64,000 nt of DNA from Gemmatimonadales bacterium (lineage in GTDB: Bacteria > Gemmatimonadota > Gemmatimonadetes > Gemmatimonadales > GWC2-71-9): the NCBI GenBank assembly GCA_039917855.1, contig JBDSIR010000098.1, forward strand, positions 13,000 to 76,999, read 5' to 3'. The notes beneath the pieces were generated by a model. That model was not told the DNA's origin and ran no database searches. It saw nothing but the letters and a program-made list of their open reading frames with translations. The position numbers were made by a program, and so were the translations under genes. Numbering within the stretch: position 1 is the first letter of the stretch; every line of letters starts with the position of its first letter. Below, in pieces: positions 22,194 through 41,669 of the stretch.

Positions 22194-22200
22194 GGAAGAT

Positions 22201-22389
22201 CTAGAGGGCCAGACCGACGGGCACCAGCACGCAATATCCAAGGACCAGCAGGATGGAAGCGGGAGTGGTGCTGCCGGACTGAAGAAGCAAGTACCCTGCC
22301 ACGAGGCTCAGGCCCCCCAAGGCGAGGATAACAAGGTTTTTGCGACCGAGGGGGAACCCGCCCCGGCCGGAAGTGGTGGAAGTGGCCAT
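22201..22389 (-). CDS. small two-TM membrane protein (DUF3098-like)
   Basis: 62 aa: a short basic N-terminus, then VILALGGLSLVAGYLLL and ILLVLGYCVLVPVGLAL hydrophobic helices. 11 nt downstream of the preceding gene and 7 nt upstream of tRNA-Val. Confidence 0.45.
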   Translation of the reverse strand: MATSTTSGRGGFPLGRKNLVILALGGLSLVAGYLLLQSGSTTPASILLVLGYCVLVPVGLAL

Positions 22390-22400
22390 AGAATTGAAGG

Positions 22401-24211: not shown

Positions 24212-24218
24212 AAATGGA

Positions 24219-24689
24219 TCAGGCCGCACCCACGGACTTGAGGGCCAGCCGCTCCTTGGACGACAGCAGCCGCCCGGCATTGAGGATCACGACGGTGCGA
24301 CTGCCCTCGCGCACGAGAAGGCCGCTGATGTATTCGGCCGCGAGGCCGCGCACCAGCGGCGGCGGGGCGGTGATGGCGCCGCCGTCGATCCGGGCCACGT
24401 CCAGCACCTGGTCGACCACGATGCCGATGCGCTGACCATCGACGTCGATGACCATCATCCGGGTCTCTTCCCCGAGCTCGGCGCCCAGCGACAAGCGCTT
24501 GCGCAGGTCGATCACCGGGACCGCCACCCCCTCGAAGGTCACGACGCCTTCGAGGTAGTCCGGAGACTTGGGAAGGGCGGCGGGCCGCTCGTAACGGAGG
24601 ATGCGCTCGACCTGGAAGACGTTCAGGCCGAACTCCTGGCTCCCCACCCGGAAGCACACGATCTGGATCTCGTCGCCGGTGGTCGTCAC
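24219..24689 (-). CDS. cheW: chemotaxis coupling protein CheW
   Basis: QIVCFRVGSQEFGLNVFQVERIL...VTFEGVAVPVIDLRKRL...IGIVVDQVLDV, a typical CheW fold sequence. GTG start overlaps the upstream stop (GTGA). Confidence 0.85.
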   Translation of the reverse strand: MTTTGDEIQIVCFRVGSQEFGLNVFQVERILRYERPAALPKSPDYLEGVVTFEGVAVPVIDLRKRLSLGAELGEETRMMVIDVDGQRIGIVVDQVLDVARIDGGAITAPPPLVRGLAAEYISGLLVREGSRTVVILNAGRLLSSKERLALKSVGAA

Positions 24690-25111
24690 GTGGAGGCTCC
24701 CGCGCCGGCGAGTCGCTCGCCGAGGGCCTTGAGGTCGAGGATAGGGATGGTCCGGTCCTGCTGCCGCGCGAGTGCCGCGGCATAGGGGAGGCCCGGCAGA
24801 CCCGCCGCCGGAAAGACCTCCCCGCGCTGTACCACGAACGCATCGTCCACTTCGAGACAGATGGGGCGTCCGCCGGCCCGCACCAGGACGGTCGCGGTGC
24901 CGCGTTCGGCCGGAGCGGCGTGCCCGGCGAGGAAGGCGCCCAGGTGGAGAAGCGGCACCAAGCGACCCCGGGATTCGGTCACGCCTCGCATCGCGACGAG
25001 GAGGCTCGGGGCCGGGAGCACCGGACCGGGTTCGCCCACTTCCAGGACGTCGGCCGCGGGCAGTCCGAACCGGCGACCGTCGGCCTCGACCTCGAGCCAG
25101 GTGGCATTCAT
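24686..25111 (-). CDS. divergent CheW-like protein
   Basis: [21 protein letters not shown]...[21 protein letters not shown]...[11 protein letters not shown] resembles CheW but is shorter and degenerate. Confidence 0.6.
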
Positions 25112-26229
25112 GCGCGTCGCATCCGATCCAGTTCCTGGCGCACCCGGGCCGGGATGGCGGCCAACGCCATCACGTGATCCGCGCCCCCCGCCTCGAGCGC
25201 GGCCTTCGGCATGCCGTAGATCGTGGCGCTCTCCTTGTCCTGCGCGATGCCGATCCCGCCGGCGTCGTGGAGCGCGCGAAGCCCGACCGCGCCATCGCGC
25301 CCCAGTCCGGTCAGCACTACTCCCACCGCGCGCCTCCCGAACACTTCGGCGACCGACTTGAAGAGCGGATCGGCCGCCGGGCGGACGCCGTGCTCGGTGG
25401 GTCCCTGGTCGAGCACGAGGTAGAGCCCATCGTCGGCGGCGGTGACCCGCATATGATAATCGCCCGGCGCGATGTACGCGGTATCCTGCAGCACCGGCGT
25501 GTGGTCCTCGGCCTCGACGACCCGGTAATGGCTCTGTCCCGCGAGCCGCTCGGCGAGGGAGCGGGTGAACTTGGGCGGCATGTGCTGGACGATCAGGGCG
25601 GCCGCTCCCTGCCCTCGCTCGAGTTGGGGGACCAGATCGGCAAGGGCGCGGGGACCACCGGTCGACGCGGCGATCGCCACGCAGCGCTGGGCCCGGCCCG
25701 GCAGGGCAAAGACATCGTCGGAACTGGGACGCACCACCCGCCGCGGGCGGGCCAGCGGGCTCACGCGGAAGATATCGGCCGCGCGCGCGGCCCGGAGCGC
25801 ATTGAGGAGCCTGGGCTTGAGCACTTCGGCGATCTGCCCGGGGTCGCTGGTGGAGTCGAGCTCCTTGGGCACCAGTTCGACGGCGCCGAGTTCGAGGGCG
25901 CGAATGGCGGCGGCCGTGCCGGCGCCGGCATACGCGCTCACCACGACCACCGGACGCGGCATCTCGGACATGATGTATCCGATGGCGCCGAGCCCGTCGA
26001 GCTCCGGCATCTCGAGGTCCATCGTGACGAGGTCGGGGACCAGCTTGTGGATCTTGCGGAGCGCGTCCTGACCATCGCGTGCCACGCCGACGACCTGGAA
26101 CTCGCCGGACGCATCGATGATCTCACTCAGCACCCGGCGGAACAGGGCGCTGTCGTCGACCACGAGGACGGTGGGGCGTTCAGAGGGGTTGTTCACCGGT
26201 CGCCAGGGTGCGGATCCAGAGCGCGCCAT
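25108..26229 (-). CDS. cheB: chemotaxis response regulator protein-glutamate methylesterase CheB
   Basis: Receiver domain [28 protein letters not shown], then methylesterase [11 protein letters not shown] and TIYGMPKAA. Start is uncertain: ATG at 26229 or GTG at 26196. Both overlap the cheD 3' end. Confidence 0.9.
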
Positions 26230-26668
26230 CGGTCGCCTGCAGGCGGATGGAGCGCCCCACCGTGCCCCCCGTGGCCTCCGCGGTGATCGCCACGCCATGC
26301 TCGTGCAGCACCTGGCGCGAGGCCACCACATTCCGTTCCCCCATCTGGACCGCCCCCGACGGGGTCAGATTGCCGAACATCGAGGCCCCCCCGACCAATC
26401 GCGCGGTGACCCGCGTCCGTTCGGCGCCGAGGGCCTGCATCCGCTCGAGCAGGAGCGGGACGGCCGACTGGGGGAACTTCGCGGGGTTCTCGGCCGAACG
26501 GCTGAGGCTCCGGTTGGGGAGCAGAACATGCGCCATGCCGGCCACTTTGGCCACGGGATCGTGCAGGCAGATGGCCACGCAGCTCCCGAGACCGAGGGTG
26601 ACCATCTCACCATCGCCGGCGGCGGTGTTGAGGTCGGCGACCTTCACCACGATGGTGCCGGGCTTCAC
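26180..26668 (-). CDS. cheD: chemoreceptor glutamine deamidase CheD
   Basis: [29 protein letters not shown], the CheD catalytic Cys region. 162 aa. Confidence 0.85.
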
Positions 26669-27492
26669 GAAGCCCTCCGGAAGATCCGTTCGCGCACGTC
26701 GACCAGCTCCAGCCGCTCGCGGGCGGCGCCGAACAGGGTCTCGACCTTGCCGAGCAGGAGGTACCCCCCGGGAGCGAGCGCCTTGGCGAAGGCATCAAAG
26801 ATCCGGTCCTGACCATCGCGGTCGAAATAGATCACCACGTTGCGGCACACGACCAGGTCGAAGGGAGGGTTCGGCGCCGGCTCGCGCAGGAGATCCTGGC
26901 GCCGCACATCGATCATCCGCTGGAGGGTGGGCACCACCTGTCGGTCATCGATGCCGAGGGGGCGGAAGTACTTCGCGGTGAGCTCCGGCGGCATCTCGAT
27001 GAAGGCGGACGAGGGGTACCGGCCGGCGCGGGCGCGGGCCATCACGACCTCGTCGATGTCGGTGGCCACGATCCGCGACCGGGTGGCCCAGAGGTGCTTC
27101 CCCATCCGCTCCGACTCCTCCGCCAGGCACATCGCGAGGGTGTAGGGCTCCTCACCCGAGGAACAGCCGGCGCTCCAGACCCGGACCGCGCCCTCCCGCT
27201 GGGCGAGGAGGCCCGGGAGCACCAGCGTCCGGAGGCGTTCCCAGGTCTCCGGATTGCGATAGAGGCGGGTGACATTGATCGTCAGCGCATCCTTGAGCTT
27301 TTCGAGTTCGCCGGGATCGGAGCGGAGGAGCTCGCTGTAGGCCCCATAGCTCTCGGTGCCTCGGGCCCGCATACGCACCGCGATGCGGCGGCGCAGGACC
27401 TTCTCCTTGTAGTCGGCCAGGGCGAGCCCCGCCGCGCGGGTGATCTCACCCGTGAGCCGGGCGAAGCCCTCGGGATCGCCGGTGAGCATCAC
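26665..27492 (-). CDS. cheR: chemotaxis protein methyltransferase CheR
   Basis: N-terminal CheR helical domain (LADYKEKVLRRRIAVRM), SAM domain VWSAGCSSGEEPYTLAM and DLVVCRNVVIYFD. Confidence 0.9.
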   Translation of the reverse strand: MMLTGDPEGFARLTGEITRAAGLALADYKEKVLRRRIAVRMRARGTESYGAYSELLRSDPGELEKLKDALTINVTRLYRNPETWERLRTLVLPGLLAQREGAVRVWSAGCSSGEEPYTLAMCLAEESERMGKHLWATRSRIVATDIDEVVMARARAGRYPSSAFIEMPPELTAKYFRPLGIDDRQVVPTLQRMIDVRRQDLLREPAPNPPFDLVVCRNVVIYFDRDGQDRIFDAFAKALAPGGYLLLGKVETLFGAARERLELVDVRERIFRRAS

Positions 27493-29111
27493 GCCGACGC
27501 CGTCTCCAGCGCCTCGAGATTGGTCCGGGCGAGCTGATGGCCAGGATTGAGCTGCAGCACGCGCTTCCAGTGCTCCCGCGCCGTGGCGGTGTCGCGTTGG
27601 CGGAAGGCGATGTTGCCGAGCTTGAAGAACAGGTCGTCGCCCAGGTCGGGGGCGAGCTTGGCCGCGCGCTGGTAGGCCCCCGCGGCCTCCTCGTACTTGC
27701 CGCCGCGATAGAGGAGATCGCCCAGGTTCTTCGAGAGTTGCGGGAGCGTGGGGTCGTCGCGCAACGCCTCGCGGACCACCGACTCGCTCCGTTCGAGGTC
27801 ACCCATCAACTCGAGGAGGACGCCGAAGTTGTTGCGGAGCGCGGGGTGGTGCTGATAGCGCTGCACCCCTTCCTCCGCGGTGCGGAGGGCGTTCTCGAGG
27901 TCGCTGTCGAGCGCCTGCGCCAGCCCCATCGCCCAGAACCAGACGGCGGGGGGCTGCTTCTCCCCGTGCAGTTCGCGAGCACGCTGGAGCCGGCCGACGG
28001 CGACGTGGGGATCACCCTTCTTGAGGGCGGTGATGGCCCAACCGGTCATAAGCCGCGGGTCCTCCCGCGAACGGCTGACGGCCTCGCCGTAGCACGCCTC
28101 CGCGTCGGCGATGCGCCCCAACTGCTCCATCCCGAACGCCAGGTTGGCGAGCACCGCGGGCCGCGGTCCACCCCGTTCGCCGGCGACCTTGAGCGATTCC
28201 ACCGCATCGGCCCACTTGGCCTGCTTGAGCGAGATCAGCCCGATGAAGAACGGCGCGCTCGCCTCCGACGGTCGCAGGTCGGCCACGCGGCGGAACTCAC
28301 GCTGGGCCTCATCGAGCATCCCGGTCTTGAAGAAGGCGATGCCGAGATTGCGGTGTTCCTCGATGCGGGCGGCGTTGACCTTGGGCTCGGCGGAGACGGC
28401 GGAGCTCCCGGCGCGGTGCGCGAACCCGGCGGTGATGAGCCCGTAGAGCGACTTGCCGACCTCGAACTCGACGAGCCCCGAATCCTCGACCAGCTGATGG
28501 ATGTCGCGCTTGCCGTCGAGCAGCGGGACGATGCGCTCCTGCTCGGCCGAGAGCTGCACCTCCGACTCGGAAAGGTGCTTCTGGTCGACGGTGAAGATCA
28601 GGTCGAAGCTGGGGATCTTCTTTTCGATGAGGCTCCACTCATCGACCCGGCGGGCGCCCTCGAGAAGGAGCGACTCGGGATTGATCCTGACGAGGAAGTC
28701 CTGGCGCTCGGGCTTGACCCCGGCCTCGAAGTTGAACGTCCCGCTGGTCCAGGTGAAGAGGAAATAGACCGCTTCCTCGATCTGGACCCGCATGTATTCC
28801 TCGAGCTCGGGCCGCTTGATCGCAGCGATGTTCACCAGGATCTCGCCCAGCTTCTGTTCGCGGAACTCCTCCTGCATCGCGATGGCCTGCCCGAGCTGTT
28901 CCTCGGTGATCTTGCCGTTCTTGACCAGGATGTCGCCAAGGCGGTCGCGACGGTTGACGATGGACGCGTAGCAGATGCGTCCCTCGTCGAAGTAGATGTA
29001 GCCGAAGTTCTGCTTGTCTGCGACGGCGAGACAGCCGGTCTTCCGCCCCAGCGACAGCAGCTGGAGGACGTCCGGGAGGGACGCTTCCTTGAGACTCCCC
29101 TTGATGGCCAC
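27489..29111 (-). CDS. PATAN (DUF4388) domain protein with C-terminal TPR repeats
   Basis: N-terminus (M)AIKGSLKEASLPDVLQLLSLGRKTGCLAVADKQNFGYIYFDEGRICYA is the DUF4388/PATAN signature. The C-terminal half has multiple TPRs. GTG start shares 1 nt with the upstream stop (TAGTG). Confidence 0.75.
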   Translation of the reverse strand: MAIKGSLKEASLPDVLQLLSLGRKTGCLAVADKQNFGYIYFDEGRICYASIVNRRDRLGDILVKNGKITEEQLGQAIAMQEEFREQKLGEILVNIAAIKRPELEEYMRVQIEEAVYFLFTWTSGTFNFEAGVKPERQDFLVRINPESLLLEGARRVDEWSLIEKKIPSFDLIFTVDQKHLSESEVQLSAEQERIVPLLDGKRDIHQLVEDSGLVEFEVGKSLYGLITAGFAHRAGSSAVSAEPKVNAARIEEHRNLGIAFFKTGMLDEAQREFRRVADLRPSEASAPFFIGLISLKQAKWADAVESLKVAGERGGPRPAVLANLAFGMEQLGRIADAEACYGEAVSRSREDPRLMTGWAITALKKGDPHVAVGRLQRARELHGEKQPPAVWFWAMGLAQALDSDLENALRTAEEGVQRYQHHPALRNNFGVLLELMGDLERSESVVREALRDDPTLPQLSKNLGDLLYRGGKYEEAAGAYQRAAKLAPDLGDDLFFKLGNIAFRQRDTATAREHWKRVLQLNPGHQLARTNLEALETASA

Positions 29112-31108
29112 TAGCGGAGCTCCTCCATAAGGCGGTCCGCGAGGTCGGGCCAGTCCCAGACCATCTTCTCGGCGCTCTTCACGCCGCCCGAGGTCGTGAC
29201 GACGATGCCGCTGGAGCGTCGGGTGGCGCCGCTCTTCCGCTCGGCTCCCGAGAGCGGCCCCTCGAGCACCTCGCGCGCCAAGCCGGCGCTCGGGCTCACG
29301 TTCTGGGCCTCGGCGGCCCCCAGCAGGCGCTGCACCAGACCCAGCACGGCGCGGAGCGATTCGGCCGGACGCCCGGCCAGATACGCCGCCAGCTCCGTGT
29401 CGCTCGACCCGAGCCGCTCGTGGAGGGCACGTTCGACCACGCCAAGGCGCAGTTCGCGTTCGGGCGCGCCGAGGGAGACGACGAGCCCGCCTTCGAGCCG
29501 GCTCCGGAGCCGCTCCTCGAGGCCGGTCAGGTCGCGCACGGGGACCGCGCTGGTGAAGAGGAGCTGGCGTCCCTGCCCCAGCAGCTGGTCGAAGAGCCAG
29601 AAGAGCTCTTCCTGAGTGCGATCCTTCCCCTGCAGGAGGTGGATGTCGTCGATGCAGAGCGCGGCGACACGCCGGTAGCGCGCCCGCCAGACGGCGACGC
29701 GATCGCGCTCGATGGCCTCGATCAGTTCCTGGGTGAAGTCCTGCGCACCGAGGCAGGCGACCACGGCGCCTTCGCGTGCGGCGAGGGCATTGGCCACCGC
29801 CTGCAACAGGTGGGTCTTGCCGAGCCCGCTCCCCGCGACGATGACGTAGGGATTGTACTTGGTGGCCGGTTCCTCGACGACGCTGTGCGCGGCCCGCACC
29901 GCGATCCGGTTGGAGGGCCCTTCGACGAACTCCTCGAGCCGGTAGAGCGGCGAGGGTCCTGGTGGCGGGTTGGACCCGGCGCGCGCACGATCGGTGAGGG
30001 TGGTGGCTCCCGCGAGATCGTCGGGATCACGGAAAGCGGCGCTCCCCGCGAGCTGCGGCTCGAGCTCGACCGCCTCGGCCTCGAGTGCGCGAAGCCGGGC
30101 GACGTCCGCTTCGTATTGCAGGATCGCGGAGAGCGGATCGCCCGGGGACTCCTGCGCGAGGAGGGCGGAGAGACGCACGGTGCGGAACCCCTCGCCTTCC
30201 CAGCGCATGATGGCCTCGCCCACCCGAGTGCGCCACGCTTCGACCTGGGCGTTGACCGTGGTGGTGATGTCGCTGAGGAAGGAGTCGAACTCGCCGGGGG
30301 CGGTCGCCGACTCCTTGTCGGGCCCAGGTGAAGCGTTGGCGGGCGAGACGTTCGCGGGCGAGACGCCCACGCGACTCGCGCTCGGGGCGGGACCTCCCAC
30401 GAGCACTTCGCGGGCGGTGTCGGCATCGAGCGGGGTATCGCTGACCGACTGCCAGGCGATGAGGCGGTTGAGCCCGCCGATGAGCTCGCGGACGTTCCCG
30501 TCGATCAGTGTCGCCACGACCTCGAGCACGCCGGGGGGGAGGGTCTGGTTGCGCTCCTCGGCCTGGCGCCGGAGGATCGCGATGCGGGTCTCGAGATCGG
30601 GAGCGAAGACGTCGATGACGAGCCCGCCGGCGAAGCGCTGGATGAGCCGCTCATCGAGCGCCTCGATCTCGCTGGGCGGCCGGTCGCTGGACATCACGAT
30701 CTGGCGGCCGGCGGTGGTCATCTGGTCGACGAGCCGCAGGAGCTCGGACTGCACCTCGCGCCGGTGGGTGAGGAACTGCACGTCGTCGAGGAGGAGGAGG
30801 CCGGTCTCGGCGTATCGGCGCCGGTAGGCGTCGCCCTGGCCCGCGCCGATGGCGGCGTGGAAGGCTTCGACGAAATCGTCGCAGGTGATGTAGTCGACCG
30901 TGAGCGAGGGCGAGATGCTCCGGGCCAGATGCCCGACCGCCATCAGCAGGTGGGTCTTGCCCAGCCCCGGTCCGCCGTAGACGAAGAGCGGGTTATACGC
31001 CGATCCCGGTGACTCCGCCACCGCCCGCGCCGCGGTGACGGCGAGGCGGTTCGCGGCGCCGACGATGTAGACGTCGAACCGGAATCGGGGGTTGAGCTGG
31101 TCGGTCAT
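29111..31108 (-). CDS. tandem DnaA-type AAA+ ATPase (two DnaA domain-III modules; no domain I, no domain IV)
   Basis: Module 1 (aa ~6-236): [64 protein letters not shown]. Module 2 (aa ~388-616): [65 protein letters not shown] 150-aa linker separates them. The C-terminus has no helix-turn-helix DnaA-box-binding domain. Confidence 0.85.
30335..30364. repeat. 15-nt tandem duplication in the linker of the DnaA-like gene
   Basis: gttggcgggcgagac / gttcgcgggcgagac, encoding [10 protein letters not shown] on the coding strand. Confidence 0.85.
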
Positions 31109-31710
31109 CCGCTCACGGGCTGCGTCTGCGCGAGGCGCTTGAGGACCTGCTCCGAGATCCCCTTGAGGGTCTCGAACACCCCGCTGCCGTGGAGCGCGTC
31201 GCCGGCGAAGCTCTTCACGTTCCGGAAGTTGATCGCGTCATCGAGCTCCGCCTGGCTCAGGATGAGCTCGGGGGGAAGGTCCTGCTTGTTGTACTGGAAC
31301 ACCGTGGGGAAGGTGCGCACGTCCACGCCCTGTTCGAGCAGGTTGATCTGGAGATTCTGCAGGCTCTCGAGGTTGTCCTCGAGCCGGCGCGCCTGGCTGT
31401 CGGCCACGAAGACGACGCCGTCGGCCCCCTGCAGCACGAGCTTCCGGGTGGCATTGTAGTACACCTGCCCGGGCACGGTGTAGAGCTGGAACCGGGTGGT
31501 GAAGCCGGAGATCGAGCCGAGCTCGAGCGGCAGGAAATCGAAGAAGAGGGTGCGGTCGGTCTGGGTGGCGAGGGAGACCATCCGACCGCGCCGCGTGTCC
31601 GGCACGCGTCCGTAGATATAGTGCAGGTTCGTGGTCTTCCCGGACCGGCCAGGTCCGTAGTAGACGATCTTGCAGGTGATCTCACGGGCCGTGAAGTTGA
31701 CCAGGGACAT
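31105..31710 (-). CDS. mglA: Ras-like polarity GTPase MglA
   Basis: [58 protein letters not shown]. About 60% identical by eye to Myxococcus MglA. Start reset to the ATG at 31710. Confidence 0.92.
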
Positions 31711-31714
31711 GGCC

Positions 31715-32176
31715 TCAGCTCCCGAAAAGCGTACGGAGACTCGCGTTGAGCTCGCGCTCGAAGTCCGCGGCCAGCACCGGCTGGGGGGCGGGGGCCTCAG
31801 GGGCGGCCTCCGCAAGATCCTTGACGAGCTGCTCGAAGAACAACTGCACCAATCCGAGTGAGGTGTCGGGGCCGAAGACCACCAGCCCCACCCAGCGACC
31901 GCGGGGGGTCTCGAAGCTCGCCAGCAGGTGCGCTTGGTGAGGCCCCTGGTGCACGACGGTGGTGAACGGCTCCCACTTGAGCGTCCGGGCGAGCTCACTG
32001 GTCGAAGCTACGATACCGGCACCGAGTGCGGCGACCCCCATCACGTCCACCGCGCGGACGAAGCCGTGCTGGGCGACCACCTGTCCGGCCGTGGTCATCA
32101 GCAGGCAGAGCCGGGCCTGGCTTTCGGCCAGAAAGGACTCCATCGGGGCGGCGACCCAGGGCTCGACGGCGCGCAT
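31715..32176 (-). CDS. mglB: MglB (Roadblock/LC7 GAP of MglA)
   Basis: Roadblock/LC7-type sequence with the MglB-characteristic [14 protein letters not shown] segment and an acidic/Pro-rich C-tail. 4 nt upstream of mglA. Confidence 0.8.
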
Positions 32177-33377: not shown

Positions 33378-34510
33378 CGCAGCAGCTTCAATGCTTCATC
33401 GAGGGCCACTGCCGCGGCGCGGGCCTGTTCGACCTGGGGCTCCAGCGCCTGTTCCTCCGGGGGCATATCGGAGATCCGGCTCCAGCGAAGCAGCTGGTCG
33501 GCCGCGTCGTGGAAGCGGCCCCCGACGGCCAGCGCGGTCCCGAGGTAACGTTGTCCCGCGGCCGAACCGGGATCGTACTGGAGGACGCGGCGGAAGGCGT
33601 CGGCGGCTTCGGGGGCTCGGCCGAGGCCGAGGAGCGCCCGCCCGAGCACAAGGTGGGTCATCGGCTCGAGCGGATGGGTAAACATCACTTCCTGTGCGGC
33701 CAGCAGGGCACCCTGGGCATCTCCCTCCGCGAGCCGGTCCTCCGTGCGCGCGATCAGGATCGCGAGTTCGCGGCCTCCGGTGGCGGCGGTGGGACGGTGA
33801 GGATGCTCGAGCCCCACCACCCCGGCGGCGGCGAGTCCGAAGAGGGTCTTGGCCACATCGAATTCGGCGCGCCCGATCGCCAAGGCCACTTCGCGCACGT
33901 CGCGCTCGCCATCGATCACCGCGAGGATCGACCACTCGTCGGGATGGAGGTCGAGTGAGCCGCCATCGGCGGCCGAGAGCTTCGGCACGATGCCGAGGTG
34001 CGGGATGCGGGTCTGGATCTGCGACCACTCGTCGATCCGGCGCGCGCCCTCCATGAGGACCGCCTCGACCGGGATCCTGACGTCGACCTCGGCGAACTTC
34101 TCGGACGGCGCACCCTCCTCGAAGGAGAAGTATCCCTCCGACCAGCTCATCAGCTCGAAGACGACCGCCTCGACCTGGGCCCGCACCTGGCGCTGCAGTT
34201 CGCGTTGGGACACCGCACCGATGGCCACGAGCACGTCGCCCAGGCGCCGCTCGTCACCAGCCTTCTGCATATCGCGGGCACGATGCAGATCTTCTTCGCG
34301 CACCTTGCCCGCCTGCAGCAGCATGGTGCCGAGCGGATGTGGGTTCGACTTGATCTCGGCGAAGACCACGGCGCCCCGGTCGAACACGACCGTGCCGGCG
34401 TTCTGGCGCAGCTGGGAGGAGACGCGCAGGACCCCGGTCTTCCGGCTCAGGTCGAGCAGCTGGAAGACATCGTGGATGCCGAGTTCCTTGAGCGGTCCCT
34501 CGATCGCCAT
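33374..34510 (-). CDS. PATAN (DUF4388) domain protein with C-terminal TPR repeats
   Basis: MAIEGPLKELGIHDVFQLLDLSRKTGVLRVSS...GTVVFDRGAVVFA signature; C-terminal TPRs. Confidence 0.75.
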   Translation of the reverse strand: MAIEGPLKELGIHDVFQLLDLSRKTGVLRVSSQLRQNAGTVVFDRGAVVFAEIKSNPHPLGTMLLQAGKVREEDLHRARDMQKAGDERRLGDVLVAIGAVSQRELQRQVRAQVEAVVFELMSWSEGYFSFEEGAPSEKFAEVDVRIPVEAVLMEGARRIDEWSQIQTRIPHLGIVPKLSAADGGSLDLHPDEWSILAVIDGERDVREVALAIGRAEFDVAKTLFGLAAAGVVGLEHPHRPTAATGGRELAILIARTEDRLAEGDAQGALLAAQEVMFTHPLEPMTHLVLGRALLGLGRAPEAADAFRRVLQYDPGSAAGQRYLGTALAVGGRFHDAADQLLRWSRISDMPPEEQALEPQVEQARAAAVALDEALKLLR

Positions 34511-34512
34511 CG

Positions 34513-37269
34513 TTAGCCCTCCCGCCCGGCGAAGATGTGGGCCAGGTCCTTCGCCGAGCGCGCATTCTTGCGCGAGGCGGTGGCGTAGTCACTGGATGGG
34601 GCGAGCTGGATGACCCGCTCCCAGGCCTCGACGGCTTCAGGATAGCGGCGATCGCCGTTGCGGGCGGAGCCCAGGTGATACCAGGCCTCGACCCGTTCAG
34701 GCTCGAAGCGGAGCACCCGCGAGAATGCTTCGGCGGCCTTGTCGGTGCGGCCCTGGTCGAGCAGGGAGCGGCCGAGGAGCACCAGCGCGTCGAAATCGTA
34801 GGGATCGGCCTCGAGGAGGGGGATGAGCAGCTCGAGCGCCGTGCCGGCCTGCCCGGTACGGCGGTAGAGATCGCCCAGCGCCAGCGTCGCCTGCGCGAAG
34901 GTCGGCAGGAGGTCGAGCGCATGTTCGTAGGAGGAACGCGCCTCAGGATGCCGTCCCTCCTGCTCCTGCAGGTGGCCGAGCTCGAACCAGACCTGCGGGA
35001 TCGCGGAGTCAAGCTCGATCGCCGCCTGGTACGCGGCGATCGCACCGCCGGCGTCACCGAGGCGGGCACAGACCGCGGCCTGCAGTTGGAACAGATCGGG
35101 GCGTCCGGGGGCGCGGGCCTGTGCGACGCGGACATACTCGAGCGCGCCCAGGGCATTGCCGCCATCCATCCGCGAGCGGGCGCCCACCACCAGCGCCTCG
35201 ACATCGGTGGGGCGCGCTTCGATCAGCGCCTCGGCGAGGGGGGCCGCCTCGGCGCTCCGTTCGAGGGCGAGGAGGGCGCGCACCTCGCCCAGTCGGGCGT
35301 CGGCGTCGTCGGCGCGGAGGAGGCGCGCTTCGCGGAAGCGTTCGAGCGCTTCGCCGTGGAAGCCACGGCGGGTGAAGACCTCGCCCTGAAGCACGGCGGC
35401 GCGCACCGGGTCGGCTCCACGCTGGAGGGCCCGGGCGACCTCGGCGGCGGCCCGGTCGAGGAAACCCTTGCTGAGCTGATCGCGCGCCATGGCGAGGTAG
35501 TCGTCGCCTGGGACGGCCGGGACGGCCGTCCCCACACCGGCCGTCCCCCCACTGGCCCTCCCCATGCCGGCAGTCCCGACCGCGGCACCCGCGGCGGCGG
35601 ATGTCGCCGGCTCCAGTTCGGTGAAGAGCTGGTCGAGGAGCCGCTGATCGAAGTTGAATTCTTCGCCCACTTCTTCGGCGTACACGTCGGCCGAGATCTC
35701 GGGAGCGATCGAGATGTGCGGATCCTCGTACTGCAGATCGATCGCGAGCGCGTACTTCTGGGGCACGTAGTACGGTTCGAGCTCGAGGGCGCGCTTGGTC
35801 TCGCGGAGGGCGCCGTCGAAGTCGCCGAGGTGGCTGAGCGTGAAGCTCAGGTTGTAGTGGGCAGAGGCGAGCTTGTCGTCGGCCTCGACGGCGCGGGCGA
35901 AGGCGTTCTTGGCGTCGGCGTACCGCTTGAGCTCGACCAGCACGAGGCCGATGCCGTTCCACGCCACCGCGTTCTGGGGATGGTCGGCGAGGACCTGCCG
36001 ATAGGCCTCGAGCGCCAGCTGGAAGCGGCGTTGCTGGAACAGGAGGAGCGCGAGGTTGAGCCGGGCGGCCGCGAGGTCGCGCTTGCCGCGGAGTGCGGCC
36101 TGGAAGGACTCCTGGGCGCCTTCGATGTCATTGAGCTGGCTGCGCAGGACGCCGAGGTTGTTCCAGGCGAGGCCGTAATTGGGATCGTTCGCGGTGGCGC
36201 GCGCATAGCCCGCGGCGGCCTCGTCGCGCCGGTTGGCCTGGTGGAGACAGACGGCGCGCTCGTTCCAGAGCTTGGGACTGTCGGGGAATTCCTGGACCAG
36301 TCCGTCGTAGAGCTCGAGGGCGGCCGCGAGGTCGCGGCGGATGAGGTGCACCTCGGCCATCGCCTGCAGCACCAGCCGGCGATCCTCGCCGCTGTCGAGG
36401 GCCAGACGATATTCGCGCAGGGCTTCGACGTAGTAGCCCTTCTGCCGAAAGGCGAGGCCGAGGTTGAAATGCGCCAGCATCTCCCCTTCGGCCACCTGGG
36501 GGCGCATCGCCTCGAGGGTGGAGCGCCGGCGGATGCCCTGATTGCGGCGTTCCTCGAGCGACAGGTTGGCCTGGGCGCGGCCGAGGGTGGGATTGAGCGC
36601 GAGGGCGCGCTTGGTCGCGGCGCGCGCCTGGTCGTGCTGGCCCATGTCGCCATAGACGAAGGCGAGCAGGTAGTGCGCGTCGGCATTGTCGGGATTGAGG
36701 CGGACGGCGCGGGCCAGGGCCGCGAGCGCGGCGTCATTGAGTCCGCGATTGTACAGCGCCTCGCCATAGTAGAACTGGGCGATGGAGCTCTCGGTATCGC
36801 GTTCGGCGGCCCGACGGAACCACTCGCTGGCTTGCTCCACCCCGCCGCGGCTCTTCTCGGCGAGGCCGAGCTGGATGAGCGCCGGGATATCGCCGGGGTG
36901 GCGGGCGAGGAGGGCCTCGAACTCTTCGATGGCCTCCGCGTGCTGACCGAGGGCTGCGAAGACGCGGCCAAGCTCCCAGCGGGCAGCGCGGTCGTCGGGC
37001 TGACGGCGGAGCGCTTCGCGGAGCTCGGCGACGCGGGTGTCGTAGTAGCCGGTGTTCTGGTAGGCGATGGCGAGGTTCGCCTGCGCCACTCCCATCTTCG
37101 GATCGAGCTCGAGGGCGCGGGTGAATCCCGTGATCGCCTCCGGGATCAGCCCTTTCTGGTAATACAGAACGCCGAGGTTGTTGTGGGCCCCGGCGTCCGA
37201 AGGGTCGATCCGGCGCGCGAATGAGCGAAGGACCGCGAGGTCGCGTTCCGACGGCGCGGGCCCGGTCAT
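34513..37269 (-). CDS. large TPR repeat protein (918 aa)
   Basis: Canonical TPR units throughout (e.g. AHNNLGVLYYQKGLIPEAITGFTRALELDPKMGVAQANLAIAY, AWNNLGVLRSQLNDIEGAQESFQAAL). The 895-aa plus-strand ORF is its antisense shadow. Confidence 0.8.
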   Translation of the reverse strand: MTGPAPSERDLAVLRSFARRIDPSDAGAHNNLGVLYYQKGLIPEAITGFTRALELDPKMGVAQANLAIAYQNTGYYDTRVAELREALRRQPDDRAARWELGRVFAALGQHAEAIEEFEALLARHPGDIPALIQLGLAEKSRGGVEQASEWFRRAAERDTESSIAQFYYGEALYNRGLNDAALAALARAVRLNPDNADAHYLLAFVYGDMGQHDQARAATKRALALNPTLGRAQANLSLEERRNQGIRRRSTLEAMRPQVAEGEMLAHFNLGLAFRQKGYYVEALREYRLALDSGEDRRLVLQAMAEVHLIRRDLAAALELYDGLVQEFPDSPKLWNERAVCLHQANRRDEAAAGYARATANDPNYGLAWNNLGVLRSQLNDIEGAQESFQAALRGKRDLAAARLNLALLLFQQRRFQLALEAYRQVLADHPQNAVAWNGIGLVLVELKRYADAKNAFARAVEADDKLASAHYNLSFTLSHLGDFDGALRETKRALELEPYYVPQKYALAIDLQYEDPHISIAPEISADVYAEEVGEEFNFDQRLLDQLFTELEPATSAAAGAAVGTAGMGRASGGTAGVGTAVPAVPGDDYLAMARDQLSKGFLDRAAAEVARALQRGADPVRAAVLQGEVFTRRGFHGEALERFREARLLRADDADARLGEVRALLALERSAEAAPLAEALIEARPTDVEALVVGARSRMDGGNALGALEYVRVAQARAPGRPDLFQLQAAVCARLGDAGGAIAAYQAAIELDSAIPQVWFELGHLQEQEGRHPEARSSYEHALDLLPTFAQATLALGDLYRRTGQAGTALELLIPLLEADPYDFDALVLLGRSLLDQGRTDKAAEAFSRVLRFEPERVEAWYHLGSARNGDRRYPEAVEAWERVIQLAPSSDYATASRKNARSAKDLAHIFAGREG

Positions 37270-37273
37270 CGGT

Positions 37274-37894
37274 TCAAGTCAGGCGGATGGCGTCGAAGAT
37301 CGCCCGCAGCGACGCAAGGTCGGGCAGGAGCAGGAAATGCCCCCGGAGCTGCACGGGCGAGTCGAGGAAGTTGAATTCGGTCTCGACGCAGAACACGTAG
37401 TCGCGATCGTGGCCGAAGTTGAGGTAGGCGGTGGTGAGCACCGCCCCCGCCTGGTCCACCACGAGGCTGGGGACCGACGGCAGCAGCATCATCCCCATGA
37501 AATCGCTGAGCGCGTTCATGTAGGCGCTGGAGAGGATGTTGCCCGTCTCCTTGAGTCCCGACTCCTCCATCGCGCCGAATTCCTGGGTCGTCCCCGGGGC
37601 CCGGCGGAAGAGGATGTCGGAGAGGGTCCGCGCCGAGCTGATCGGAAAGATGACCAGGGTCCGCCCGGTGAGGTCGCCGAGCATGTGCATCATCACGGCG
37701 GCGATGGGGTCGTCAGGCTGGCCCAGCAACTCGGGGACCTCTTCGAGCCGCAGGATGTTGACCCGCGGGACGGAGATCATGATCCGGCTGTTGACCATCA
37801 GCCCGAGGGCCGTCGCCGCATGACCGGCGCCGATGTTGGCCACTTCTCGCAGGGCATCGAGCTGGAGGGCCTGCAGGTCGCGCACGTCGTCCAT
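37274..37894 (-). CDS. cheC: CheY-P phosphatase CheC
   Basis: Two CheC motifs: DALREVANIGAGHAATALGLMVNSRIMISVP and ESGLKETGNILSSAYMNALSDFMGMMLLPSVP (E-x2-N ... P). Confidence 0.8.
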   Translation of the reverse strand: MDDVRDLQALQLDALREVANIGAGHAATALGLMVNSRIMISVPRVNILRLEEVPELLGQPDDPIAAVMMHMLGDLTGRTLVIFPISSARTLSDILFRRAPGTTQEFGAMEESGLKETGNILSSAYMNALSDFMGMMLLPSVPSLVVDQAGAVLTTAYLNFGHDRDYVFCVETEFNFLDSPVQLRGHFLLLPDLASLRAIFDAIRLT

Positions 37895-37902
37895 GGTGCT
37901 CC

Positions 37903-39798
37903 TTACACGAGCGTGGCAGCGTCGAGGATCAACGCCGGCACGCCATCGCCCAGGATCGCAGCGCCGGAGAAGAGCGGGAGCATCCCGCGCGGCGCTTCAA
38001 AGGGTTCGACCACGATCTCCTGCTGTCCTACCAGCGCATCGGCCAGGAGCGCCGCGCGCCGATCTCCTACCTGCAGAATGATGCCCGGGCGCCGGAGGGG
38101 CGGCGGCACATCGCTTTCGACCCCGAGGACCACCCTGAGGTCGCGGATCGGGATCACCTGATCCCGGAGCATCAGGGCGTCGGCCCCTTCGAGGAGCCCC
38201 GCCGTCTTGGGCGAGATCTCGATCGTCTCGGCCACCGTCGAGAGCGGCAGCGCATAGCGCTCGCCCCCCACCCGGGCCAGGAGGACCCGCACCACCGCGA
38301 GGGTCATCGGCAGGCGGAGGATCCACGTGGTCCCCTGCCCCTGGGTGGTCCGGATCTCGACCGCGCCGCCCAACTGGCGCACTTTCGAGACCACCACATC
38401 GATGCCGACCCCGCGCCCGGAGACGTCGGTGACCGCCTTCGCGGTGCTGAAACCGGCGCGGGCGATGACCCGGAGGAGGGTCTCGTCGTCGAGCCGTTCG
38501 AGGTCGTCCTCGACCAGCCCTTCGCGCTTGGCCTTGAGGAGGATCGCGCCGCGGTCGAGGCCGCGACCGTCGTCGCTCACGCGGATCACCACGCCCTGCC
38601 GCTCCTGCGCCGCCGCGAGGTGGAGGCGCCCCTCGACCGGTTTTCCGGCCTGCTTCCGCTCCGCCGCCGGCTCGATCCCGTGATCGAGGGCGTTGCGGAT
38701 CAGATGCAGGATCGGATCGCCGATCTCCTCGAGGATGACCCGGTCGAGCTCGATGCTCTCGCCCGCGACGTCGAACCGCACCTGCTTGCCGAGCTGACGC
38801 GCCAGATCGCGCACGAGGCGCGGGAAGCGGTCGAAGGTCTGCCACACCGGCGTCATCCGGACGGCGATGATCTCGGCCTGCATGTCGCCGGTGAGGCGGC
38901 CGATGCGCGAGGCGAGCGCTTCGAGTTCGGGGTGCTCGCGGGCCACCAGTTCCTGAAGGCGCCCCTTCGCGACCATCAGCTCGCCGACCTGGTTCATCAG
39001 GGTGTCGAGCCGGCGCAGGTCGACCCGGATGTGCGAACCGCGGTCGGCGGCGATCCGCGTGGCGCGGTCGGTCGGTTCGGCGGTCGGCGCCGCGGGCCCT
39101 TCGCCCACCTGCACCCATTCGACATCACCGGCGCCGCGCAGGGCCGACTCGATCTCGGCGGCGTTCCGCGTGCTCGCGAGGCGGAAGGCGAACTGGCCAT
39201 CGAACCCGTCGGCCTCGAAGGCGTTCACCGGCGGCCGGACTCCGCTCACCGTGCCCAGCGCTTCGGCCCGCTTCAAGGCGAGGAGGGCGCGCACCCCCGG
39301 CATCAGGGTACCGGACTTGAGCCGGATCGCCACATGGAGCCCCTCACCTGCCGGGGCTGCCGCTAGTTCCGAGATCCGATGGGCGGCGGTGGTACGCATC
39401 GCCTCGGTGTCGCTGGCGCCGGTGGCAGCTCGGTCGAGCTCGCCGCCGACCCGCCCCAGCTCGAGCTGGCCGTCGCGTCCCGCCCCCGCCTCTTCGACCC
39501 CATCCTCCAGCGCGTCGACCGTCCGGAAGAGCAGGTCGAGGAGGTCAGGGCCGGGGACCAGCTTCCCCGCGCGGAGGCCGTCGAGCAGGTTCTCGGCGCG
39601 GTGGGCCAGGGCCGCAAGGTTCGCGTAGCCCATCGTGCCGGCCATCCCCTTCAGGGTATGGATGGAGCGGAAAAGACCGGCGACGTGGCCAGCGGCCCCG
39701 GCCGGATCGCGCTCCCACCCCAAAAGGAGCTGGTTGCAACTCCCGAGGTGTTCGCGACTCTCGGTGAGGAAGAGTTCGGCGTACTTGGAGACGTCCAT
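37903..39798 (-). CDS. cheA: chemotaxis histidine kinase CheA
   Basis: Hpt domain with FRSIHTLKGMAG, dimerisation IRVDLRRLDTLMNQVGEL, HATPase HLIRNALDHGIE / DDGRGLD / SGRGVGIDVV, and a C-terminal CheW-like P5 domain. Start reset to the ATG at 39798. Confidence 0.93.
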   Translation of the reverse strand: MDVSKYAELFLTESREHLGSCNQLLLGWERDPAGAAGHVAGLFRSIHTLKGMAGTMGYANLAALAHRAENLLDGLRAGKLVPGPDLLDLLFRTVDALEDGVEEAGAGRDGQLELGRVGGELDRAATGASDTEAMRTTAAHRISELAAAPAGEGLHVAIRLKSGTLMPGVRALLALKRAEALGTVSGVRPPVNAFEADGFDGQFAFRLASTRNAAEIESALRGAGDVEWVQVGEGPAAPTAEPTDRATRIAADRGSHIRVDLRRLDTLMNQVGELMVAKGRLQELVAREHPELEALASRIGRLTGDMQAEIIAVRMTPVWQTFDRFPRLVRDLARQLGKQVRFDVAGESIELDRVILEEIGDPILHLIRNALDHGIEPAAERKQAGKPVEGRLHLAAAQERQGVVIRVSDDGRGLDRGAILLKAKREGLVEDDLERLDDETLLRVIARAGFSTAKAVTDVSGRGVGIDVVVSKVRQLGGAVEIRTTQGQGTTWILRLPMTLAVVRVLLARVGGERYALPLSTVAETIEISPKTAGLLEGADALMLRDQVIPIRDLRVVLGVESDVPPPLRRPGIILQVGDRRAALLADALVGQQEIVVEPFEAPRGMLPLFSGAAILGDGVPALILDAATLV

Positions 39799-39802
39799 CG
39801 GA

Positions 39803-40165
39803 TCAGCCGAGGACGCGCTGCACCGCCTCGAGCACCCGGGAAGGCTGGAACGGCTTGACAACGAAGTCCTTCGCGCCCGCCTGGATCGCTTCGACCACCA
39901 GCGCCTGCTGCCCCATCGCGCTGCACATCAGGACCTTGGCGTCGGGGTCCTGGCGGCAGATCTCGCGGACCGCATCGATCCCACCCATGTCGGGCATCAC
40001 GATGTCCATCGTGACGAGGTCCGGCTTGAGCTGGAAATATTTTTCGACCGCCTGACGGCCCGTCTCGGCCTCGCCGACGACCTCGAATCCTGCCTGCTGC
40101 AGGATATCGGAGATCATCGTACGCATGAAGATGGCGTCGTCGCATACGAGCACGGTGTGGCTCAC
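39803..40165 (-). CDS. cheY: chemotaxis response regulator CheY
   Basis: VLVCDDAIFMR, DLVTMDIVMPDMGG, LMCSAMG, FVVKPF. The GTG at 40165 is preceded by GGGAGGG with 6-nt spacing. Confidence 0.9.
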   Translation of the reverse strand: MSHTVLVCDDAIFMRTMISDILQQAGFEVVGEAETGRQAVEKYFQLKPDLVTMDIVMPDMGGIDAVREICRQDPDAKVLMCSAMGQQALVVEAIQAGAKDFVVKPFQPSRVLEAVQRVLG

Positions 40166-40211
40166 GGAGTACCCTCCCGACCGATCGCTGCTGGGTGATG
40201 TCCTTGGGGGA

Positions 40212-40646
40212 TCATGCTCCGAGCACCGGCGCGAGCAGCGCATCGGTGTCGAGCACTACGAAGAGACCATCCTCACGCCGGCCCACCGCCCGCACCACCC
40301 GCGGATCGAGGCCCGGCAATCCCTCACGGCCTTCGAGGGCGCCGGCGGGAAGGGTGGTGAGATCGAGCACCTTGTCGACCGCGAGTCCCACCGCTTTCCC
40401 CCCATGTTCGAGCACCAACACACTGCGCTCTTCCACCAGGGACGGCCGCCCCAGAAGTCGGGACCCGTCGACCACCGTCAGCAGCGTGCCCCGCACATTC
40501 ATGAGTCCTTCGACTGCGTCCACCGCACCCGGAATGCGAGTGCCGCGCTGGAACGGGACGATCTCCTTGGCGGTCTCGACTGGCACCGCGCAGGTGAGGT
40601 CGCCGACCAGAAAGACCAGCAGCCGGAGCGGAGCGGTATCAGCCAT
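40212..40646 (-). CDS. cheW: chemotaxis coupling protein CheW
   Basis: LRLLVFLVGDLTCAVPVETAKEIV...MNVRGTLLTVVDG...VGLAVDKVLDL. Start reset to the ATG at 40646, which overlaps the rluD 3' end by 8 nt. Confidence 0.85.
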   Translation of the reverse strand: MADTAPLRLLVFLVGDLTCAVPVETAKEIVPFQRGTRIPGAVDAVEGLMNVRGTLLTVVDGSRLLGRPSLVEERSVLVLEHGGKAVGLAVDKVLDLTTLPAGALEGREGLPGLDPRVVRAVGRREDGLFVVLDTDALLAPVLGA

Positions 40647-41661: not shown

Positions 41662-41669
41662 GGGGGAGG

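Follow-up and report, generated by a model that had tools for sequence, protein, structure and literature searches.

Myxococcus is the only case in which the control of a Ras-like polarity switch by a chemosensory pathway is known in depth, and its Frz module is regarded as a late recruit. In Vibrio, the ParC/ParP genes for array positioning sit inside the che operon. The cyanobacterial PatA-type regulators use the PATAN domain (DUF4388) for output and bind PilB1 and PilC through it; fusions of PATAN to receiver (REC) domains are known, PATAN sometimes co-occurs with GspE_N/MshEN annotations, and genes for MglA/MglB homologues often neighbor PATAN genes. MglA, the large TPR protein Bd2492, RomR and CdgA, a receptor for cyclic di-GMP (c-di-GMP), are found in Bdellovibrio bacteriovorus at the invasive pole that bears type IV pili (T4P), and M. 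xanthus SgmX gives a further precedent for MglA with a large TPR protein at the pole. Here we analyzed a stretch of 64,000 nucleotides from a Gemmatimonadales bacterium (assembly GCA_039917855.1, contig JBDSIR010000098.1, positions 13,000 to 76,999), hereafter the window. On its minus strand, a long gene string interleaves the genes of a complete chemosensory (Che) pathway with genes for MglA, MglB-like, Roadblock, PATAN-TPR and large TPR proteins and for a tandem DnaA-like ATPase, which we call DnaA2x. A preliminary description of this DNA, made from the letters alone, knew of no system with this architecture, and we likewise found none described in the published full text, with subscription-only papers lying outside the search.

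The string appears to be a composite signaling unit built around DnaA2x, which is probably non-replicative, and a PATAN-TPR protein with a putative c-di-GMP site. TPR scaffolds and a membrane metallopeptidase-like protein accompany this core, which in Gemmatimonadota has a fixed slot between ileS-lspA-rluD and the dcw (division and cell wall) cluster. Two modules are wired onto the core: the putative MglA/MglB switch with two Roadblock proteins and a second PATAN-TPR protein, and a complete Che pathway placed at both ends. Our best reading, tentative at a probability of about 0.42, is that a PATAN-TPR/DnaA2x hub would take phosphorylated CheY (CheY-P), c-di-GMP and MglA-GTP as its inputs and control a polar machine. 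It is supported by the conserved interleaving of che and polarity genes, by the recurrence of the order cheC-TPR-PATAN-DnaA2x in a second genomic context, by the retention of CheY and CheC with the module in one relative (locus L083), and by receiver domains fused both to DnaA2x and to PATAN. By analogy, the precedents in which MglA shares a pole with a c-di-GMP receptor and a large TPR protein are consistent with it. The genes and neighboring features are as follows.

40212-40646, minus strand: cheW, 144 aa, which opens the signaling half (Pfam CheW, 93.7 bits)
39803-40165, minus strand: cheY, 120 aa, a single-domain response regulator (Pfam Response_reg, 108 bits)
37903-39798, minus strand: cheA, 631 aa, with the Pfam order Hpt-P2-dimerization-HATPase-CheW and without a receiver domain
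37274-37894, minus strand: cheC, 206 aa, a homologue of CheY-P phosphatase (Pfam CheC, two stretches)
34513-37269, minus strand: TPR918, a large all-TPR protein (many TPR Pfam families), candidate scaffold or effector
33374-34510, minus strand: PATAN(DUF4388)-TPR378, with an MshEN-like insert (Pfam DUF4388, 109.6 bits)
32526-33377, minus strand: TPR-Roadblock283 (Pfam TPR families and Robl_LC7, 24.9 bits against a cutoff of 23)
32176-32529, minus strand: Roadblock117 (Pfam Robl_LC7, 42.6 bits)
31715-32176, minus strand: mglB-like Roadblock protein, 153 aa, directly upstream of mglA (Pfam weak)
31105-31710, minus strand: mglA, 201 aa, a Ras-like polarity GTPase (Pfam gives a weak Arf-like match)
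29111-31108, minus strand: DnaA2x, the tandem DnaA-like ATPase, 665 aa (Pfam Bac_DnaA, 323 bits, two stretches)
27489-29111, minus strand: PATAN-TPR540, overlapping the DnaA2x gene by 1 nt (Pfam DUF4388, 126.1 bits)
26665-27492, minus strand: cheR, 275 aa, without TPR fusion (Pfam CheR, 172.9 bits, and CheR_N)
26180-26668, minus strand: cheD, 162 aa (Pfam CheD, 93.3 bits)
25108-26196, minus strand: cheB, receiver and methylesterase (Pfam CheB_methylest, 211.8 bits, and Response_reg), with its start at 26196 or 26163
24686-25111, minus strand: cheW-like gene, 141 aa, divergent (Pfam CheW, 55.8 bits)
24219-24689, minus strand: second cheW, 156 aa (Pfam CheW, 111.6 bits)
23333-24211, minus strand: TPR292, a coiled-coil N-terminus followed by TPR (Pfam TPR families), outside the limits first given for the unit
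22401-23336, minus strand: Peptidase_MA_2 protein, 311 aa, with a C-terminal membrane segment (38.8 bits), the last gene of the unit
22119-22193, minus strand: tRNA-Val(tac), which borders the unit downstream
20058-20133, minus strand: tRNA-Asp(gtc), between the unit and mraW

Comparative analyses of relatives carried most of the evidence for the unit. Taxon labels of the metagenomic loci, numbered L001 and so on, are those of the depositors, and the homology of parts across loci was checked by tblastn. DnaA2x has hundreds of full-length relatives, the named ones from Gemmatimonadales or Gemmatimonadota. A scan of genome contigs also drew ordinary dnaA genes (Streptomyces, Chloroflexota and others), and only its first 14 loci, all labeled as Gemmatimonad taxa, carried the tandem protein; a search of 50%-identity representatives recovered full-length relatives down to 33% identity. 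Eight Gemmatimonadales loci from species-representative genomes kept the order of the block at a DnaA2x identity of only 45-59%, the common order being rluD-cheW-cheY-cheA-cheC-TPR-PATAN-TPR/Roadblock-Roadblock-mglB-mglA-DnaA2x-PATAN-cheR-cheD-cheB-(cheW-like)-cheW-TPR-peptidase. The 19-gene order is shared by L001, L004 and L014 (Gemmatimonadales), save that L001 is without the 141-aa cheW-like gene, and the Gemmatimonadaceae loci L006, L009 and L010 differed only by an additional AAA_22 ATPase gene and a changed cheW-like gene. In every Gemmatimonadota locus with a complete che set, the che genes were split and interleaved at the same two junctions. Because the interleaved order is kept in the eight loci and in a Gemmatimonadota genome at 40% identity (L085), functional coupling of the che and polarity genes, rather than accidental neighborhood, is supported. 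Of the neighborhood searches proposed at the outset, the one built on the DnaA-like protein found a conserved block.

More distant relatives carried reduced or altered versions of the unit, given here with the identity of their DnaA2x to that of the window where noted.

L085 (Gemmatimonadota), 40%: full cluster without the two terminal cheW genes
L089, 40%: rluD, the full TPR-PATAN-Roadblock-mglB-mglA-DnaA2x-PATAN-TPR-peptidase set and the dcw cluster, without che genes
L083/L084, 36%: a set like that of L089, preceded by cheY-cheC only
L086, 36%: rluD-DnaA2x-PATAN-TPR-peptidase only
L094, 38%: rluD-Roadblock-DnaA2x-PATAN-TPR-peptidase only
L081/L082 (33%) and L090: cheW-cheY-cheA-AAA_22-CheW(long)-cheC-TPR-PATAN-DnaA2x, without mgl, Roadblock or cheRDB genes, at 45-49% GC
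L091 (metagenome-assembled genome labeled Gemmatimonadetes), 37%: TPR-DnaA2x, a few genes downstream of two bactofilin genes (3765-4667)

The closest named protein for L081 was 66% identical and labeled Candidatus Cloacimonetes bacterium 4572_55. In Myxococcus, the MglA paralogue SofG is a partner of bactofilins.

The constant element in all these loci is DnaA2x together with a large TPR protein, a PATAN protein or both, whereas the Mgl/Roadblock genes, CheY-CheC, CheA/CheW and CheR/D/B are each optional; the parts swap in and out as modules around DnaA2x. PATAN-TPR540 partners DnaA2x in every Gemmatimonadota locus except L091 and adjoins it in L086, L088 and L094, all of which are without che genes. 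All locus variants with MglA had a TPR918 orthologue, and further orthologues lay next to DnaA2x in L081, L090 and L091. TPR292 was found at the same position in all long loci, che-less ones included, at 48-80% identity, and the Peptidase_MA_2 gene followed PATAN-TPR540 or TPR292 in every Gemmatimonadota variant, even the minimal L086 and L094. The preliminary description had taken MglA/MglB for the hard-wired output of the Che pathway. That view was only partly supported. Their coupling to che is favored, but they are not a constant partner, because the Cloacimonetes-labeled loci have che without mgl and L089 has Mgl without che. Since the pair of DnaA2x and its TPR or PATAN neighbor is constant, that pair is likelier to be the hub or output than MglA.

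The che genes themselves varied in a manner that points to long association. Where present, cheC always lay directly upstream of the large TPR gene, and the first cheW kept its position in L001, L004, L014 and L085. CheY was 85-91% identical across the loci with complete che sets and 67-72% identical in L081, L083 and L090; over all loci, the identities of CheY (67-91%), CheC (46-77%) and CheA (37-53%) fell in step with the module, which argues for long common inheritance rather than a recent insertion. The 141-aa cheW-like gene was absent from L001 and L085, and in Gemmatimonadaceae a CheW with an extended N-terminus and an AAA_22 ATPase were found in its stead. These two genes filled the Gemmatimonadaceae space between cheB and the last cheW, in which no gene for a methyl-accepting chemotaxis protein (MCP) was found. 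The ATPase is AAA_22/ExeA-like (265-272 aa, TIGR03015-like but below cutoff) and pairs with the CheW of long N-terminus (233-344 aa) in the che part of the cluster (L010:15954-17449, L007:6257-8052, L081:4035-5923 and L090:3743-5493). The pair recurs in Gemmatimonadaceae and in the Cloacimonetes-labeled lineage, is absent from the window, and resembles a ParC/ParP-style pair.

In the window itself, all 17 open reading frames first listed for 24219-40646 were recovered on the minus strand, and Pfam backed their assignments, if weakly for mglA and mglB. The downstream end had been drawn too early: the unit runs on through TPR292 and the Peptidase_MA_2 protein to 22401, with a 7-nt gap between cheW and TPR292 and a 4-nt overlap between TPR292 and the peptidase gene. 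The tight junctions were also as described, with overlaps of 1 or 4 nt or gaps of 2-46 nt, except between cheD and cheB, where a 17-nt overlap or a 16-nt gap results depending on the start; the start of the first cheW overlaps the stop of the upstream rluD by 8 nt. The signaling half (cheWYAC) and the adaptation half (cheRDB) are indeed split by about 10 kb of polarity-type genes, and the flanks are yggS-divIVA-ileS-lspA-rluD upstream and mraW-ftsI-murE-murF-mraY-murD-ftsW-murG...ftsZ downstream, as had been reported. The minus strand carries nearly all genes between 1.7 and 55.9 kb, a stretch of about 54 kb that takes in yggS/divIVA, the che-polarity unit and ftsZ, the GC skew of the window shows no switch, and the region is one long co-directional block in which the dcw genes are likewise packed with 4-nt overlaps. 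Tight packing is therefore not special to the unit and does not by itself establish one, so that the conservation of gene order in other genomes is the real evidence for it. A promoter and terminator scan of 22000-41900 gave one promoter-like site, over the cheW start codon, and six terminator-like sites; since both counts are at chance level, they are uninformative on transcript boundaries. An Rfam scan of 20000-43000 returned the two tRNA genes only.

Between the unit and mraW lie the tRNA-Val and tRNA-Asp genes and, between these two, a gene for a 580-aa protein (20305-22047) without Pfam match, which leaves no space for mraZ upstream of mraW. Counterparts of this protein (566-588 aa, one annotated as a TPR repeat protein) occupy the same place in relatives. 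No MCP is encoded in the unit, in agreement with the preliminary description, and the window shows an MCP signature only at 63431-64000 (minus strand), in a C-terminal fragment that runs off the window end. Its gene overlaps the start of folK (63012-63434) by 4 nt, and panB (62213-63022) and panC (61219-62076) lie beyond, odd neighbors for a receptor gene. The fragment has a C-terminal arm of 157 residues past the hairpin tip and no NWETF-type pentapeptide.

DnaA2x consists of AAA+ modules at residues 1-237 and about 395-618, a helical linker at 273-376 and a disordered tail. Compared with domain III of Bacillus subtilis DnaA, the N-terminal module is 44% identical (E 2e-61) and the second module is more divergent. 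An AlphaFold2 model (pLDDT 86.8) showed the two AAA+ modules, the helical linker, the disordered tail and a conserved terminal helix, and its top Foldseek match was DnaA domain III of B. subtilis (8bv3, TM score 0.94). In an alignment of 59 sequences, Walker A (GKTH), Walker B (DD), two box VII arginines and the sensor II arginine were invariant in both modules, and the SDR sensor I motif was kept in the first module only. R116/R117 were invariant and R497 nearly so in the same alignment; we take these residues to align with the basic motif by which DnaA contacts single-stranded DNA (ssDNA). Pfam gave nothing matching DnaA domains I, II or IV, the DnaA matches spanning residues 3-237 and the second module, and because domains I and IV are missing we did not file DnaA2x as DnaA. 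Hda, which is a single short AAA+ module of about 230-250 aa with an N-terminal clamp-binding motif, was also considered and rejected, given a length of 665 aa with two modules and scores against the Hda models of 165 and 45.9 (cutoffs 194.8 and 268). In every locus examined, DnaA2x adjoined TPR genes, PATAN genes or both, and never dnaN or an origin-type context. The C-terminus of the protein (the gene spans 29111-31108, and the segment lies in 29111-29250) carries the motif S..EK.VWDWPD...DR..E..R after a disordered segment of about 40 residues; W651, W653 and P654 are invariant in the 59 sequences, and the motif may be a docking peptide for a partner.

One member of the family, P0219, is a 738-aa protein with a C-terminal receiver domain, encoded in a gene cluster at L092:5692-12939. 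Its N-terminal module is nearer to DnaA2x than to true DnaA, and its gene is followed by Hpt-REC-Hpt-REC genes and preceded by genes for a PAS hybrid histidine kinase and a REC-HD-type regulator. MshEN-DnaA and TPR-DnaA fusions were rejected as members, as their modules are 53-59% identical to true DnaA and 39% identical to DnaA2x; being nearer to true DnaA, they were treated as parallel recruitments. Three such MshEN-DnaA fusions, the largest of 1990 aa, and one MshEN-only protein are encoded in a T4P cluster (L093:1486-21973, GCA_030620115.1) with the prepilin peptidase gene pilD and with pilB, pilT, pilC and pilS. As their modules are nearer to true DnaA, it seems that DnaA domain III was brought into this setting of pilus and c-di-GMP genes on a separate occasion. 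P0231 (1373 aa), from a metagenome-assembled genome labeled Candidatus Sumerlaeaceae bacterium, joins a long TPR array to a single C-terminal DnaA-type AAA+ module, again outside Gemmatimonadota.

Both PATAN proteins matched PF14332 far above its cutoff of 25 bits (126.1 bits for PATAN-TPR540 and 109.6 bits for PATAN378). Neither has the PatA-type architecture, as both end in TPR and showed no Response_reg match in Pfam. Residues 57-109 of PATAN-TPR540 matched the MshE-related c-di-GMP motif NF053729 of NCBIfam with 43.4 bits, above the cutoff of 38, and the double motif RLGDxLVKxGxIT..QL..AI..Q and RLGEILV...L......Q was present in 10 of 10 aligned orthologues, those of minimal loci included. 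This insert is thus a putative MshEN-type c-di-GMP site. In PATAN378, the second half-motif RRLGDVLV..Q was conserved in most aligned orthologues.

MglA of the window is a member of the MglA family (Group 1) by sequence. It reaches 59% identity with M. xanthus MglA (E 1e-72), matches T. thermophilus MglA with an E value of 9e-65, shares the switch segments TDRTLFFDF and YTVPGQ with the M. xanthus protein, and is 74-87% identical to the copies of relatives. The product of the adjoining mglB matched only MglB structures (6hjm, E 8e-7; 1j3w, E 9e-6) and was weak on profiles, with 19.4 bits for Pfam Robl_LC7 (cutoff 23) and 37.7 bits for NCBIfam MglB (cutoff 200). Residues 180-280 of TPR-Roadblock283 gave a weak match to the MglB model, and the closest solved relative of Roadblock117 was a Robl_LC7 protein (7f8m, E 8e-9). 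The profile check suggested for the MglA, Roadblock and PATAN assignments therefore had a mixed outcome: Pfam confirmed PATAN and two Roadblock proteins, a structure match confirmed MglA, and mglB was weak on profiles while matching MglB structures only.

By its sequences, the Che core belongs with the Thermotoga/Bacillus/archaeal (F1-like) systems and is not Frz-like. The set of CheA with P2, CheW, CheY, CheB, CheR, CheC and CheD is that of F1-type systems, here with three CheW paralogues, and the usual output of such a set is flagella or archaella. Compared with T. maritima CheY (1TMY, E 5e-51), CheY is 66% identical and has a nearly identical alpha4-beta5-alpha5 region, and CheC matched T. 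maritima CheC over its full length (1XKR, E 2e-29). CheA matched the T. maritima and E. coli CheA structures with E values of 1e-87 to 1e-92 and scored higher with the halobacterial NCBIfam model (CheA_Halo, 435 bits) than with the E. coli-type model (340 bits), although both scores are below equivalog cutoffs. MCPs of the 44-heptad class accompany F1 systems, and the 157-residue arm of the MCP fragment is compatible with that class without being diagnostic of it. The missing MCP of the unit carries little weight, since che operons without their own MCP are common. Frz-type hallmarks were not found in the unit: there was no CheA-receiver fusion, CheR-TPR protein, dual receiver or MCP, and the only response regulators were CheY and the CheB receiver. 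The 141-aa CheW-like protein was rejected as a FrzB-type truncated CheW, because its alignment showed a full-length CheW fold without a large deletion. The Dif-type system of M. xanthus and Geobacter also has CheC and CheD, so gene content alone is not decisive for F1, and the identity of CheY to its T. maritima homologue is the stronger point. The preliminary description had read the pathway as one with an alternative cellular function and saw in its position a hint of polarity or cell-cycle control rather than flagellar control. The first view was not supported: the sequences show no obvious such type and point to F1, with a CheY near T. maritima CheY. With an F1-like core and one polar flagellum in cultured Gemmatimonas species, the output may be flagellar.

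Cultured Gemmatimonas strains seem to have the cluster in a reduced form. The nearest published record, in Table S2 of Wuichet and Søgaard-Andersen (PMC4316618), lists for G. aurantiaca GAU_1409 as "PATAN>MglA>-PATAN>" and GAU_1115 as "MglB>MglA>", classes the MglA proteins of this species as Group 1, and does not mention che genes or a DnaA-like gene for it. The recovered entries of the G. phototrophica transcriptome supplement contain a CheW (RS07755), a response regulator (RS07760), a DUF4388 protein (RS07780), a GTPase (RS07785) and a CheB (RS07805), with gaps of three genes between RS07760 and RS07780 and three between RS07785 and RS07805; the cluster spans RS07755-RS07805 (NZ_CP011454 1873383-1886675). 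As far as these sources go, the GTPase gene comes right after the PATAN gene, the mglB and Roadblock genes are missing from between the two, and a second mglB-mglA pair lies elsewhere, so that the cultured strains differ from the organism of the window. The G. phototrophica transcriptome paper names the CheA gene RS15835 as induced, together with an MCP gene, upon addition of calcium, the flagella-forming condition. Since the locus tag RS15835 lies outside the cluster, a second CheA is likely, the CheA of the cluster not being among the entries recovered. The available data also give G. phototrophica a normal dnaA.

We propose the following mechanism for the hub. MCPs encoded elsewhere would control CheA, which would phosphorylate the single-domain CheY, with CheC resetting it, and CheY-P would dock on the PATAN-TPR/DnaA2x hub. 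On the same hub, c-di-GMP would act through the MshEN-like clips, and so would MglA-GTP, set by MglB and the Roadblock partners and held on the large TPR protein. The assembly state of DnaA2x, dependent on ATP, would then decide where or when a polar machine is active; its likeliest target would be type IV pili, and a single polar flagellum or the site of budding or division would be alternatives. Gene content, domains, conserved catalytic motifs, synteny, modular presence or absence and domain fusions were observed directly in the loci. From them we infer co-transcription of the genes, contacts between the proteins, binding of the ligands and the identity of the output.

Several observations weigh against this mechanism. 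No T4P, flagellar or MCP gene was found in or next to the unit, either in the window or at any locus of the DnaA2x family. A Che core of this type normally acts on flagella, the alpha4-beta5-alpha5 region of its CheY is nearly identical to that of T. maritima CheY, and CheY may simply act on FliM. The module occurs without che genes in L089, L086 and L094, from which it follows that the Che input is dispensable, and the che genes may be only co-expressed passengers. The clip in PATAN378 scored 34.2 bits, below the cutoff of 38, and is missing the first arginine. The fusions of DnaA domain III to MshEN or TPR, nearer to true DnaA, are parallels and not members of the DnaA2x family. Finally, a neighbor-joining tree of DnaA2x was star-like at depth with a patchy presence of che, so that gain and loss were not separated.

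The unit might instead encode an ordinary F1-type flagellar pathway with CheY-P acting on FliM, the MglA, PATAN, TPR and DnaA2x proteins being co-expressed to place or inherit the flagellum, the receptor array or both, in the manner of ParC/ParP in the Vibrio che operon or of FlhF/FlhG, with no signal passing from Che to MglA. We regard this as somewhat unlikely. It would account well for the T. maritima-like CheY, for CheC, CheD and a CheA with P2 whose best model is halobacterial, for the single polar flagellum of Gemmatimonas species, for the ParC/ParP-like AAA_22 ATPase and extended CheW of the Gemmatimonadaceae and Cloacimonetes-labeled loci, and for the arm of the MCP fragment, which is long enough for the 44-heptad class. 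Yet the module is intact without nearby che genes in L089, L086 and L094, which is unexpected of a pure accessory of the receptor array, and L083 keeps CheY-CheC with the module although cheA and cheW are gone from the locus. Nor does a flagellar gene neighbor any locus examined, and G. phototrophica likely has in the calcium-responsive RS15835 a second CheA outside the cluster that responds together with an MCP gene. An explanation of another kind, in which the che and polarity genes are independent operons inherited side by side in a long conserved housekeeping stretch (yggS-divIVA-ileS ... dcw), appears improbable. The co-directional block with its overlapping dcw genes, the independent absence of each module and the lack of above-chance promoter or terminator signals at the boundaries would all fit it. 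It is at odds with the splitting of che at the same two junctions of the complete-che Gemmatimonadota loci, with 1-4-nt overlaps into the polarity genes, with the recurrence of cheC-TPR-PATAN-DnaA2x in a Cloacimonetes-labeled lineage of 45-49% GC, and with the P0219 receiver fusion and the known PATAN-REC fusions, which independently tie phospho-signaling to these proteins.

The least probable of the explanations is that DnaA2x assembles head-to-tail, touches ssDNA or DnaA, and links polarity, c-di-GMP and the chemosensory state to replication initiation, nucleoid anchoring or budding division. If true, a paralogue of the replication initiator would be the route by which a chemotaxis-type pathway acts on the cell cycle. 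The 44% identity of the N-terminal module to B. subtilis DnaA domain III, the arginine-finger and sensor residues and putative ssDNA-contact arginines conserved in both modules, the fixed Gemmatimonadota slot of the core pair from divIVA-ileS-rluD to the dcw cluster, and the bactofilin genes beside the core in L091 speak for it, as does the fact that Gemmatimonas has been described as budding. However, DnaA2x is without domain IV, which binds DNA, and without domain I; a normal dnaA is present in G. phototrophica; PATAN, TPR, MglA and Che proteins are known from motility and polarity rather than replication; and chromosomal position is weak evidence.

Another Che class is here physically joined to an MglA/MglB module in another phylum, which would represent an independent wiring of the same logic as in Myxococcus. 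The natural variants (che-less, CheY-CheC only, Mgl-less and minimal core) form a ready-made deletion set that points to the key partners. The tandem DnaA-like ATPases are an unstudied family, always found with TPR partners, PATAN partners or both and in one case fused to a receiver, and the PATAN proteins gain a testable ligand hypothesis, c-di-GMP bound through an MshEN-type clip. Because cultured Gemmatimonas seem to carry the reduced cluster, genetic tests are feasible.

Compared with the described systems, the unit shares with Myxococcus Frz/Mgl the presence in one organism of a Group-1 MglA, here beside an MglB-like partner, and of a Che-type pathway, as well as additional Roadblock paralogues beside MglB, comparable to M. 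xanthus MglC. However, Frz and mglBA are unlinked there and interleaved in one gene string here, the Che proteins here are not Frz-type, no RomR-type protein is encoded in the unit, and DnaA2x and PATAN-TPR are without counterpart in the described Frz/Mgl circuit. As in the cyanobacterial Pix/Tax systems with PatA-type regulators, a chemosensory pathway is tied to PATAN proteins; in contrast to them, PATAN carries TPR repeats in place of a receiver, CheY is encoded as a protein of its own, CheA has a single Hpt domain with P2 and no receiver, MCP and pil genes are absent, and MglA/MglB and DnaA2x are additional. The F1 systems of T. maritima, B. subtilis and archaea have the same gene set and close relatives of CheY and CheC, but here about 10 kb of polarity genes divide the operon, which has three CheW paralogues and no adjacent flagellar genes, and CheY-CheC remain with the polarity genes in one relative (L083).

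In the Bdellovibrio hub, the genes are dispersed, MglB has been lost and the receptor is a degenerate GGDEF protein, whereas the candidate receptor here is an MshEN-like clip in PATAN, an MglB-like protein is present, and che and DnaA2x are linked. DnaA2x shares with DnaA/Hda the AAA+ domain III fold (TM score 0.94 to the B. subtilis domain) and the same catalytic motifs, and differs in having two domain-III modules per chain, a conserved helical linker and no domains I, II and IV. As with ParC/ParP of Vibrio, a non-Che ATPase is embedded in a che operon with a CheW-like protein, and the two are conserved together; unlike there, no ParA-type ATPase is present, and the insert is ten genes long and che-less in some lineages.

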